A DNA stretch of 64,000 nucleotides from Zootoca vivipara. Taxonomy: Eukaryota. The stretch lies in the NCBI RefSeq assembly GCF_963506605.1, contig NC_083279.1, positions 101,184,001 to 101,248,000 of the forward strand, given 5' to 3'. A model generated the notes under the pieces. It ran no database searches. It worked only from the letters and a program-made list of their open reading frames with translations, and had not been told where the DNA came from. Below are positions 14,460-19,400 of this stretch, piece by piece (position 1 is the stretch's first letter; every line of letters begins with the position of its first letter). The translations under genes and the position numbers were made by a program.

Positions 14460-16446
14460 ATGGTACTCACAAGAAAGACCTGTAAAGATCTGGGTATCTC
14501 GCTAGATAAGCAAGTTAGCTCACCGGAACTCAGAAAGAGACAAAGCAAAATTACAAATTACTTTCCTAAGAGGAAGGAGTGTGAGAGTGAGCCAAACGAG
14601 CTAATCCTTGATGAAGTCATTCCTCCTCCTCATTTTGTCCTAGACTGGCAAATTCTTTCTAAAGGGCTTCAACAAAACTCCGGAAATATTAACTTCCCAA
14701 GAACCTTGGCCCAAGAACTGGCCTTAGCCGAGAAACCCTTTGAGGTTAATACATCTAATACAAAGAATCAGTTGCCTTCAGCAGAACCTGAAATAAGTTG
14801 CCCAAACCAGCAAGACCAGCAGACTATTCCCAAGTGTACTCAAACAGAAGTGAGTGATGGCTACTTTCAGGATCACCTTCATGCCATATGCACTGATCTC
14901 TCCAATATAAAAAACTTTTTATCAATAACAAATGGGTTACTTTTGACTTTAGTGGAAAACTTCACACTCCAATTAAAAGAGCCAAATGATGTGACCCAAG
15001 TGCACAATTCAGACAAGCCGGCCGAGATGAGTCAATCAGTAACAAATGAGAAATTGCAAAGACACAAATCAAAAGTAAAGGAAAAGAAAAGCAAAAATAT
15101 TAAAACAGCAAGGAAAGCAAAGATAAGCCGCCGTACCTGGAAAAAAACAATGGCAGAAACTATTCAATCTACTTCCACCTGGCCCAAACAAAACAGATCT
15201 ACGGGGTAACAAAAGGAAAGGTAAAAAGAGAGCAAAGAAGGTAACTCCCCAGTTAACGCTTAAGGAGGAATCCCCGAAGCAGAGCCTAGAAATGAACGGA
15301 ACAGAGGAAGCAACATCTCAGAGTCCCGGCAGTAAGACAACCAGTAAATTAGATATTGGAGAGGGTGCGGCCCTCAATTATGAAGGCGATACCCCCCAAG
15401 ATTGGCAAGTCTCATCCAAGGTAAAAGGCTGGAACCTGATTTTAAAACCCCAAACACTTGTATTTGCAAACTACCCGAAACCGAAGGGTTTTCTTACAGG
15501 GAAAGAACGAATAATGAATTCCCTGGACATTCTGAATGATATGTTGCCAGGAGCAGTAAAACCAAATGATATTATTTCCGTAGAGTATTTACATTACGAT
15601 GGCTATTCGGTGAGAGCAATGATCACCTTTAGAGATCAAAATCTGGCCAAGTTTATTTACAGGTCAAGTTATATATTCTTAAAGATGCGGATAATAGTAC
15701 TCAGATTCTTTGAAAATAAGTCACCATTGAGTCCTCTCCTTGAAGTTAAGCATGAAAATCCTAGGAAGGAGAAACAACCTTCAAAGGTCTGGCCTGATCA
15801 TCATCATCAGAATCAAGAGCTCCTAAAATTAAAAAGGAAAGATGCACATCTGCAAGATTTGCAATGCCCTGTGAGTGAGGGTGAGGACAACTTCTCTATT
15901 GAAGAAAATACCCTAATTAGTCAATTCTGGACATTTCCACCTGTAATACAAGCTGAAATTTTAGAAAGATTAGAAACCTTAAGAAATAAGTTGGCCGGGA
16001 AAGACTTATATAATGAAACTAAGGAGGATGACCAAAGAAAGGGTCAGATCCCTCCTAAAATGATCACCACACAAGAACAAGATTCAGCGGCCCATCGATT
16101 ATGTAACCTTCAGATAAAGGCAGAGATTAATCTACCTCCAATTAAGAAAGCACAACTCACAAAGGAGAACAATGTATCACCCTCTATAAGGAAAAACATC
16201 CCTAAGGAAACCTCACCAGGCTTCTGGACCAAAATGAGATATTTAGATGAAGCGGAATTAGGCTATAACCAGGTAGAATACCCCCAGGAGGAGACCTCGT
16301 ATAGCAAAGGCCCGGTGACTACCAATGTGAGCACTCTACATTCACCATCTGACACCATAGAACACCTGGGGAGCTTCCCATGTAAGGATGATGGCTGGTT
16401 GCCACACAAAATGGTAAACTCCAACAGTACCTTGGAGGATAACTGA
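14460..16446 (+). pseudogene. LINE ORF1 (~660 aa after one +1 correction in the A7 run at 15141-15147)
   Basis: ORFs 14460-15209 and 15292-16446 join if one A is removed; the second frame is open back to that run. Confidence 0.7.
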
Positions 16447-19400
16447 CAAGGAGTGGATTTTGGTAAAGCCAACCTTAGTTTCTTATCATGGAATATCGCA
16501 GGATGGCAAAAAAAGGTAGCTGATCCATCCTTTGTTAAATTTATCCAAGGCTACGATATAGTATTCTTACAGGAGACATGGTTTATAGGGGACCTAGAAA
16601 TCAACGGTTTTTCCTCAATGTCCCTTCCAGGATCTCCAAGCACTAAAGGGGGGAGAGTCAAGGGTGGCCTAGGCATTTTAATATCCACAAGGTTGAGGGT
16701 GTCCTTAGTAAAGTTGGAGCCACTGAAACATCTGGCTATGGCCTTACTAGTGAAAAGTAGATCCTTCACCTTGCTACTGATTAACGTATATCTTCCCCCC
16801 CAAAGAGGCAAGCAGCTGATTAAAAACACCTGGCATGGGCTGGAAACATACATTGATGGTTTGATGATTCAAACCCCTGCAGCTTCAGTGCTAGTGGCTG
16901 GTGATCTAAACGCCAGAACTGGCCAGTCGGACGAAGCATTATATGCATACTTCCACAATTCGCCACCCATCGTGGAAGAAAACCATCTTATACCCACCAG
17001 GCTCTCAAAAGATAAGGGATGTAATTATGCAGGTCTGTGCCTATTGCGTCTTTCTAACAAGCTGGACCTGGTCATACTAAATGGGCGCACTAATGGGGAG
17101 ACTTGCGGGGAATTTACTTTTATATCAAATGCAGGAGCTTCCACTATTATGTTATGGTGTCATTCAATCTCCTGAATAGAGCCCTTGAGTGCAAAGTGGA
17201 GGAGAGGGTTGACAGCGAACATTTACCGCTCTGCCTCCGCCTGGATGTAAGAAAAGACTTATTTTGTGATGATAAACTTGAAGCCCCCAGGTCCTCCAAC
17301 ATGGAGTTGAGATTCTCACGTATTAGATGGTCTGAAAAACTGAATGTTGAAATATCTGAAAGGCTATACTCGGACATATTCCTTACTAGAAGAGATAATC
17401 TCCTAAACTCACCATGTCCTGAATCTAGAATAATCTTGTTCCGGGATTTGATCTCACTCTTACAACCCTCCCTGACTCAAAAAAAGACATCGCGCCAACC
17501 CTTATTCCCCACCAAATCTAAATCCTGGTTTGATCAGGAATGCATTGCTATGAAGCATTCCTTGCTGGAGAAATACAGGAATTACAAATCAGCGAATTTA
17601 CCCTTGCTCCCTGCGGAATGGTTTGAAGCCAAACGCAAATATAAAGATCTGATTAAAAAGTAAAAGCTGCAGGCCCAAAAGGGGGAGTGGCAGTGTTTAT
17701 TAGAGGCCTCTCGAAGGAAAGACTCAGCCACTTTTTGGAAAATAGTCGCGAAAAGTTGGCAAGACGCCCCAATTGAAATTGACTATAGTATATCAGTTGG
17801 GATCTGGGAGGCTCATTTTCTATCTTTATATGCATCAAACCAACACCTGCAGGCCCTGCCCCCAGCTTCGAGTGATATTGGCGTAGAATGGCCCCCAGTA
17901 ACAATTGAAGAAATCTATAGGCTTATCCAATCTCTTAAACCTGGAAAAGCCCCCGGCGTAGACAACATTACACCGGAACTTCTCAAGGCTAATGTTGAAT
18001 GGTGGGCCCCTGTGTTAGCTGCCCTGTTTACCAGCATAGATCAATCGGCCACTATCCCTGAGGACTGGGGATTAGCAATCATCGTCCCATTATTCAAGAA
18101 AGGGAGCAGATCAGATCCGGCTAATTACAGGCCAATCAGCCTCCTAAGCATTATTAGCAAATTGTACGCTGCCCACCTATGCGACAAACTAGTGGACTGG
18201 ATGGAACGACATCACATCCTTTCAGAAGCACAAGCTGGTTTTAGGGCAAATCGGTCAACCATAGACCAGGGACTTGTTTTCCAACACCTTGCGGAGAAAT
18301 ATTCATCAAGAAAAGGAGGTTCCCTGTACGTAGCCTTCATAGATTTCAAATCTGCTTTTGACTTAATACCGAGGGATAGACTTTGGGGGAAGCTAAGCGC
18401 TTCAAATATAAACAGACGCTTACTGTATCTCATCCGCAGTCTATATGAAAATACACGGATCCGGGTAAGGTGTGATCGACAGGGCCATCTATCCAAGGAA
18501 ATCCAAATCCACCAGGGGGTCAGACAAGGGTGTGTCCTTGCGCCTACTTTATTTAACTTCTATATCAACTCTTTAGTAGGAATTATGGAGAAAGAAAATG
18601 CCCATCCCCCCAAATTGGCCGGTACGCCCCTCCCGGTCCTTTTATATGCGGATGACGCAGCTTTAATTTCTTTTTCTTGTGTTGGATTAAGAAAACTTCT
18701 GCGATCTCTTTCCAAATACTGCAGTATCGAACAAATAACAATTAACTATAACAAATCCAAAGTCATGGTGTTCTCTAAAAAAAGGAGACACAAATGGAGA
18801 ATAGACAATCGCTCAATAGAACAGGTAGCATCCTTTAAATACCTGGGTATAACCTTCCAGGAAAGGGGCTCCTGGCGCTTTCAGATTAAAAACACTATTG
18901 CAAATGCAGAAAGATCTACCAAAGCGTTAATAAGATTCTTCTACGGGAAAGGGGGCCAACACATACCGGCAGCCTCCCAGGTCTTTGCTGCAAAAATACT
19001 ATCACAATTGTTATATGGTTCTCAGATCTGCAGCTTTAAAAACCTTACTCCCCTAGAGGCATTCCAAACTAAGTTTTTTCGTTGCCTGCTAGGGATCCCC
19101 TCTTGTGTATCTAACATAGCGGTCCGTTTGGAGGTTGGTCAAATTCCTGTCAGTGCCCGGATATGGATATTGAAGATCCATTATTGGTTAAAGCTTATTT
19201 TCTTCCCGGTTGGGCTGGCACCCTTGACCTTATTAGACACCTACCAATCGAAATGGAAAGCTACACTGCTGGAAAAGCTCAAAGGCTTGGGGACCCCACA
19301 GCAGACCCTGATAGGGGCAGGCTTTGAGAAAGCTAGGACTATGGTTCGCCAGCGTATCTGGGACGTAGAATTGCAATGCCACATGAGCGAAATGACCAAA

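Follow-up and report, generated by a model that had tools for sequence, protein, structure and literature searches.

Within a 64,000-nucleotide stretch of the Zootoca vivipara genome (contig NC_083279.1, positions 101,184,001 to 101,248,000 of the forward strand; hereafter the window), a long interspersed nuclear element (LINE) extends from about position 14460, the first ATG of its first open reading frame (ORF1), to the end of its tail at 20081. Its second frame (ORF2), which encodes an endonuclease and a reverse transcriptase (EN-RT), lies in frame behind a single TGA, and the EN-RT of this element and its relatives is probably made as an ORF1-ORF2 polyprotein by context-driven readthrough of the UGA. 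The preliminary description of this DNA had proposed such a fusion from a single copy, and the conservation now seen across copies and lineages argues for it. The stop, the frame, a C at +4, an A at −2 and the lack of a conserved AUG have been kept despite flanks that have diverged freely. The readthrough step itself we infer, from an architecture and a retention that are clade-wide and well controlled at the level of sequence.

The letters of the window agree with the original observation that ORF1 ends at a TGA and that its frame runs on into the endonuclease without an ATG. Positions 16441–16449 read AAC TGA CAA, and the candidate readthrough site (16441..16453, + strand, as are all features of the element) presents a single in-frame TGA (16444–16446) in the context AAC-TGA-CAA-GGA-G. 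A stop-to-stop frame of 439 aa (15127–16446) closes here and the same frame resumes at 16447–17175 (242 aa), its first residues being QGVDFGKANLSFLSWN. The 14 sense codons between the stop and the W (16489) of the SWN motif, whose S is at 16486, form an open linker (16447..16488) with no ATG and with a GTG at 16453, while the Pfam match to the APE endonuclease (PF03372, E 8e-9) begins at residue 13 past the stop. Logan contigs of three public runs cross the junction and leave it unchanged; those of X15 and X17, possibly from the source sample, show no differences at all, and that of X18 has one substitution and one gap, both away from the junction. An in-frame ATG at 16411–16413, 11 codons 5′ of the stop and present likewise in the copies L041, L038 and L039, could, as an internal start, place a short leader ahead of the readthrough site.

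As the window copy is otherwise decayed, a nonsense mutation had to be taken seriously and was the first thing examined. Searching the same genome at the DNA level returned seven matches, five covering the junction, and in the window lineage AAY-TGA-CAA stands in frame in 5/5 junction-bearing copies (approximately 68–92% DNA identity), which is more than chance. The intact copy L038 presents an open frame of 700 codons, the TGA and then 1132 codons. The survey was widened by protein searches, in which the best 150 of 474 and the best 150 of 736 candidates were listed; 80 of these were fetched, picked by eye for distinct scores and long ORF2s, and so form a non-random sample. Of the 81 rows including the window, seven belong to a lineage with overlapping frames, five are 5′-truncated before the junction and 69 keep the position. 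The preliminary description had asked whether the in-frame TGA-C is kept in relatives or replaced by a sense codon: the 69 copies have TGA in 68, TGC in one and TGG in none, followed among the 68 by C in 61, A in six and G in one. The frame continues into SWN in 61 of these 68 and suffers a copy-specific break downstream in the other seven. TGC replaces TGA in L239 (=L248) and L249, from a sister subfamily of the L231 lineage, and in both copies homology is lost about 25 nt upstream.

Clustering of the endonucleases at 55% gave 15 lineages, the short window-lineage copy L041 being merged by hand; L075, L077, L080 and L097 were left out of the count as their motif had been mislocated, and on re-examination two of them keep TGA-C and two are 5′-truncated. 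Intact ORF2s are 30–42% identical between lineages. ORF1 and ORF2 share a frame interrupted by one TGA in 14 of the 15, with a linker of 7–155 codons from stop to W, the upstream frame being weakly documented in two of the 14 (40 open codons in L095, which is known from one decayed copy, and 302 in L093). Young intact copies, 98–100% identical in ORF2, bear the same TGA junction and elements with this junction have therefore been mobile. Outside this genome, 80 metagenome loci are 24–40% identical, and the seven with a readable endonuclease start are RTE-like and lack a long in-frame ORF1 (WNVR/WNVL-type starts in 6/7), so that the junction evidence is confined to the lizard's own genome.

Around the stop the 14 lineages present a purine at −3 in 13, A at −2 in 13, C at +4 in 12, A at +9 in nine and G at +10 in ten. 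Given the local base frequencies, TGA in 14/14 has a P of about 1e-7, and binomial P values against local composition are 3e-6 for A at −2, 1.5e-6 for C at +4, 0.008 for A at +9 and 4e-4 for +10; as the lineages share an ancestor these values speak for retention under selection, which is something other than repeated origin, and the −2 and +10 signals were picked out after inspection of 15 positions. The C at +4 and the A at +9 fit the published readthrough-promoting motif UGACANNNA and, as the preliminary description had stated, UGA-C is reported to be the most readthrough-permissive context (PMC10954755; here and below, statements cited by accession refer to excerpts of the papers). Codon differences in the linker fall on the three positions as 39/27/36, against 11/15/32 at the start of the endonuclease (seven overlapping pairs), and with the linker changing as freely at first and second as at third positions, the junction motif cannot be put down to a general conservation of the region.

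Twenty other LINE loci of the same genome, obtained through a PF03372 search, served as controls; from their motifs we take 18 to be L1-type, not all of them independent loci, and two to be CR1-type. All 18 L1 controls carry an ATG 7–8 codons before WN. An uninterrupted in-frame ORF1 is found in only two of them, both ending in TAA, the ORF1 stops being spread over three frames, and TGA-C occurs at 0/17 of the ORF1 stops located. This L1-type arrangement of a spacer and a conserved AUG shortly before the endonuclease motif is not found in the clade: the relatives share no conserved ATG ahead of SWN, an arrangement that the preliminary description had named as contrary to fusion, and 10/14 lineages have none at least seven codons before the W. 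The terminal stops of the clade's own ORF2s are TAA in five, TAG in two and TGA in eight, with C as the next base in 4/15 and TGA-C in 1/15.

The one lineage that is out of frame (L042, L043, L240, L241 and L245–L247) presents an ORF1 that overlaps ORF2, the latter in the −1 frame. Six of its seven copies have T-TTT-TTA in the ORF1 frame some 80–85 nt 5′ of SWN, the other having lost 1 nt, and the heptamer copies come from three subfamilies that are 62–75% identical in the endonuclease. The ORF2 frame opens a few codons before the heptamer and the position of the ORF1 stop shifts between subfamilies. U-UUU-UUA is the −1 frameshift heptamer of HIV-1. Because the sole out-of-frame lineage possesses an X-XXY-YYZ heptamer in its ORF1 frame, it likely achieves the ORF1-ORF2 fusion by a second route, −1 frameshifting on U-UUU-UUA. 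No other lineage is closer to the window lineage than L042 (42%), which places it within the clade. L042 itself has an ATG two codons before the W that the other two subfamilies lack, and pseudoknot-free folding of this one copy predicts no stable stimulator, only weak hairpins with z from +0.4 to −1.3. The overlap also contains a conserved out-of-frame ATG-GGA-GYG-TTT-TTT-TAG, coincident with Asn-Gly codons of ORF1, and reinitiation plus a +1 shift on this sequence is the less likely explanation.

In the mechanism that we propose, most ribosomes would terminate at the UGA and release an ORF1 protein (ORF1p) bearing an RNA recognition motif (RRM), while in a few percent near-cognate decoding of UGA-C would insert a residue and translation would run on into the EN-RT. 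Such rare readthrough would set a high ratio of ORF1p to ORF2p. The signal would lie in the primary sequence, approximately RAH-UGA-CNNNNAG, and the L042 lineage would arrive at its fusion protein through a −1 shift on U-UUU-UUA. The broader proposition is that the whole vertebrate LINE clade expresses its polymerase in gag-pol style through this structure-free code, one branch having swapped it for the HIV-type frameshift, so that both retroviral solutions would be found inside a clade without long terminal repeats (LTRs); we regard this as evenly balanced between true and false.

A number of observations weigh against readthrough. The case for it is built on sequence, and the common ancestry of the lineages noted above limits what the context statistics can say. 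The missing ATG is by itself no proof of fusion, since human L1 makes ORF2p without needing an AUG (PMC4091050). Two of the 14 lineages, with four copies each, have TGA-A, and four lineages with long linkers hold an in-frame ATG, in one case two codons past the stop. Among the 14 representatives CUAG occurs in none and the CARYYA of tobacco mosaic virus (TMV) in one subfamily only (L045, where it is complete), and many of the triplets that follow the stop (CCC, CTT, CTC) are only moderately leaky. The complete CARYYA of L045 and the CUA of several subfamilies, both known from viral readthrough sites (PMC13517186), do speak in favour; CUA adjoins the UGA in 2/14 representatives, and the window, having CAA-GGA, matches neither CARYYA nor the CUA/CGG of type II sites.

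RNA structure likewise offers no help to readthrough. The preliminary description had suggested folding the downstream region for a stimulator, and none is predicted: at 20 junctions, with four folding windows each and 60 shuffles, z is near 0 in 19/20, the sole value below −2.1 coming from L041, where another repeat is inserted. Nor is there a sign of long-range pairing with the 3′ end in 15 elements, as cognate partners pair no better than swapped ones (permutation p 0.98 when the final 80 nt are taken and 0.92 with the entire untranslated region (UTR)), and in the pairing scan the best of 139 ORF2 windows reaches −2.1 against a standard deviation of 0.73, with the best duplexes at unrelated places. 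A strong long-range duplex in L038 was rejected since the window copy lacks it. These predictions cover structures other than pseudoknots. UGA-CGG sites and that of Moloney murine leukaemia virus (MoMLV) are reported to require structure (PMC13517186). In the lizard clade, with no stimulator structure found, the signal for readthrough is likely to be primary sequence.

The tolerance of human L1 for loss of its AUG (PMC4091050) makes AUG-independent termination-reinitiation the main rival, in which ribosomes that terminate at the UGA remain bound to the RNA and begin again on the codons just after it. Translation of L1 ORF2 depends on the upstream ORF and not on an AUG (PMC4091050, PMC5972666), slow termination at UGA-C might favour reinitiation, and the absence of a stimulator structure is in keeping with it. 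It also fits equally well the finding that the stop is never fewer than seven codons from the W, the same minimum as for the L1 start. Under reinitiation, however, there is no reason to expect a linker that stays in frame and free of stops for as many as 155 codons, or UGA in 14/14 lineages; the L1s of the same genome keep the ATG but neither the frame nor the UGA-C, and in the overlap lineage it is the ORF1 stop that moves and the slippery heptamer that stays. We thus consider this rival improbable, though deserving of attention. A start on a near-cognate codon or a downstream ATG, reached by reinitiation or internal entry, appears very unlikely. The window does have the GTG at 16453, put forward in the preliminary description as the alternative start, two lineages have CTG directly past the stop, and besides the ATGs of the four long-linker lineages some subfamilies have one 2–5 codons before the W. 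But GTG is present in only 1/5 window-lineage copies (the other four read GTA, CTA, CCC and CCC), which leaves that alternative weak, and 5/14 representatives have no ATG, CTG or GTG at least seven codons before the W. The positions of ATGs in long linkers differ between sister subfamilies (82 against 37/24/22; 56 against 33), and those 2–5 codons before the W would shorten the first strand of the endonuclease relative to all 18 L1 controls.

Removal or redefinition of the stop, by A-to-I editing of UGA to UGG, by splicing or by insertion of selenocysteine, would account for a codon that is always UGA, at once editable and the selenocysteine codon. Since copies derive from RNA, editing or splicing of the template should have produced copies with TGG or without the junction, yet TGG is found in 0/69 and no splice joint was seen at the junction in the contigs. 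For selenocysteine, nine elements gave no Rfam match to a selenocysteine insertion sequence (SECIS) (E up to 0.5), and the 3′ UTRs are short (82–273 nt) and mostly AT-rich; this group of explanations is accordingly given hardly any weight. A copy-specific nonsense mutation in one long ORF (CGA to TGA, for example) could be suspected from the three other disabling lesions of the window copy, and from the TGC in the two copies of one sister subfamily. It is refuted by the copy survey, where TGA persists in 68/69 copies including intact young ones, and no fused relative of 1700–1980 aa is found among 23 database matches (7994 candidates scored), leaving its probability close to nil. RNA data do not discriminate further: about 6% of each of three runs gave no reads over the junction bin of L045 (depth 0 at 3410–3600) and in a further RNA data set 0 reads mapped to the window copy.

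The element is an APE-type LINE, with PF03372 and PF00078 found in the window and in 7/7 intact ORF2s scanned and with short-repeat 3′ tails as in LINEs of this type. From its motifs we take the clade to be RTEX, a label that is likely although it is not shown by the tree. A quick maximum-likelihood reverse transcriptase tree unites 14 lizard rows with P0002, P0004 and P0005 in a single group (SH-aLRT 100) that excludes L1 and CR1; this tree contained no labelled RTEX reference and lost eight rows, including L042, to a coverage filter, and a link to RTE-like elements is unsupported either way. The best database match is a Podarcis muralis protein with 83% identity, and P0002–P0005 are protein relatives that come without DNA context. 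The RRM-type domain of ORF1 gave profile matches in 19/20 ORF1s and a structural model with a pLDDT of 89, whose best TM-score (0.60–0.62, E approximately 0.009) is to human L1 ORF1p. Pfam assigned no family above cut-off, and no SGNH esterase, to nine intact ORF1s and the ORF1 pieces of the window, and the Pfam scan revealed no protease domain. The RRM is near-identical across lineages whose ORF2s are only 34–39% identical (L059:5079–5420(−) against L064:4856–5197(−); L054, L091 and L231), which suggests swapping of ORF1 between lineages with the in-frame TGA-C retained. Upstream of the junction in L068 (1226–1520, − strand) the full Rfam model of 7SK RNA finds a match (E 1e-69), probably a retrocopy.

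The window copy is dead and could not itself make ORF2p. Compared with the intact L038 it has frameshifts near 15146–15151 in ORF1 and near 17148 in ORF2. The former splits ORF1 (14460..16443), which aligns by tblastn in two frames with the intact L038 ORF1 of about 660 aa (49–52% identity) and contains the predicted RRM-type domain common to the clade at 15430..15774. In ORF2 the endonuclease (16483..17240, 3′ end approximate) is interrupted by the latter and is followed by an internal TAA (17661..17663), a copy-specific lesion missing from L038 and present in the X15 and X17 contigs, by the reverse transcriptase domain (18102..18857; PF00078, E 7e-34) and by a C-terminal CxC...HxxxxC motif read off the translation (19566..19619), presumably zinc-knuckle-like. 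The 3′ UTR (19821..20081) presents a short terminal hairpin (20049–20059), AATAAA (20065–20070) and a (TTCA)n tail. The same order of a short hairpin, AATAAA and a microsatellite tail closes the element in most lineages (3′ ends of 15 elements; window 20049–20081), an arrangement that we take to be typical of 3′-end recognition by stringent LINEs. By eye, a stretch of about 115 nt starting at the ORF2 stop is duplicated in this region (approximately 19812–20000). A copy 99% identical to the window 3′ end (G000:C12:30775258–30776038) has no match to the junction query and is likely 5′-truncated. The element is flanked by fragments of the 3′ end of another LINE (13060–13614 and 22803–23270), assumed from its motif to be L2-like.

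The closest precedent is in Paramecium tetraurelia, where readthrough of the ORF1 stop has been suggested from the consensus of Group 3 non-LTR elements, with frameshifting or reinitiation in sister groups (PMC5405496). These too are APE-RT LINEs whose ORF1 and ORF2 share a frame; however, they form a separate ciliate clade with a +1 shift in the sisters, and in the excerpt the suggestion occupies one sentence with no analysis of stop context. The lizard clade, by contrast, is vertebrate and offers 14 lineages with a defined context, L1 loci as controls and a lineage with a −1 heptamer. Viral type II (alphavirus nsP3-nsP4, UGA-CUA/CGG) and type I sites (TMV, UAG-CAR-YYA) share with it an in-frame leaky stop before the polymerase, C at +4 and CAA, CAG or CUA as the next triplet, and sense-codon variants as well, CGA in chikungunya virus (PMC13517186) and TGC in the subfamily described here. 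They differ in that the lizard clade has no predicted stem-loop, its triplet past the stop varies widely and CAA-GGA in the window lacks YYA. As in retroviral gag-pol, the polymerase would be made as a fusion with the structural protein in excess, by readthrough (UAG in MoMLV; PMC13517186) and by −1 frameshifting in different branches, whereas the lizard element is non-LTR, has no Pfam protease, uses UGA and not UAG and has neither a stable hairpin nor a pseudoknot among the structures predicted for it. Mammalian L1 and SART1 resemble it in their bicistronic LINE RNA and low output of ORF2p, with an L1-like RRM in ORF1, but L1 (a spacer and an AUG) and SART1 (a UAAUG overlapping stop-start) give separate proteins, and neither arrangement is found here (PMC5972666, PMC4091050, PMC5009743). 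RTEX elements, present in Anolis (PMC7561263), likewise have two ORFs, an APE-RT ORF2 of about 1100 aa and a microsatellite tail, and the nearest metagenome matches are RTE-like; the lizard ORF1 differs in its predicted RRM and its lack of a Pfam esterase, an esterase being reported for some but not all RTEX ORF1s (PMC3905857). Reviews give reinitiation for L1 and SART1 and, in the excerpts available, mention no readthrough in LINEs (PMC5972666, PMC5009743); the excerpted Entamoeba paper has nothing on readthrough (PMC2657916). Full-text searches, judged by their listings and the excerpts cited, brought up no account of readthrough or of a −1 frameshift for LINEs of vertebrates or of the RTEX clade, within a scope that leaves aside Repbase reports and most subscription papers, which may note the stop.

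How ORF2 is translated from a bicistronic LINE RNA is a long-standing question that has been answered experimentally for few elements, L1 and SART1, both of which make separate proteins. A conserved recoding site would represent a third route, open to simple reporter tests. The 14 diverged contexts would amount to a natural, selected collection of UGA readthrough signals from a vertebrate, A at −2 and G at +10 being candidate determinants. Annotation pipelines will treat such elements as broken or begin their ORF2 at the wrong ATG. If the proposal is true, a fused ORF1-ORF2 protein would give cis preference and the stoichiometry of the ribonucleoprotein particle a mechanical footing.

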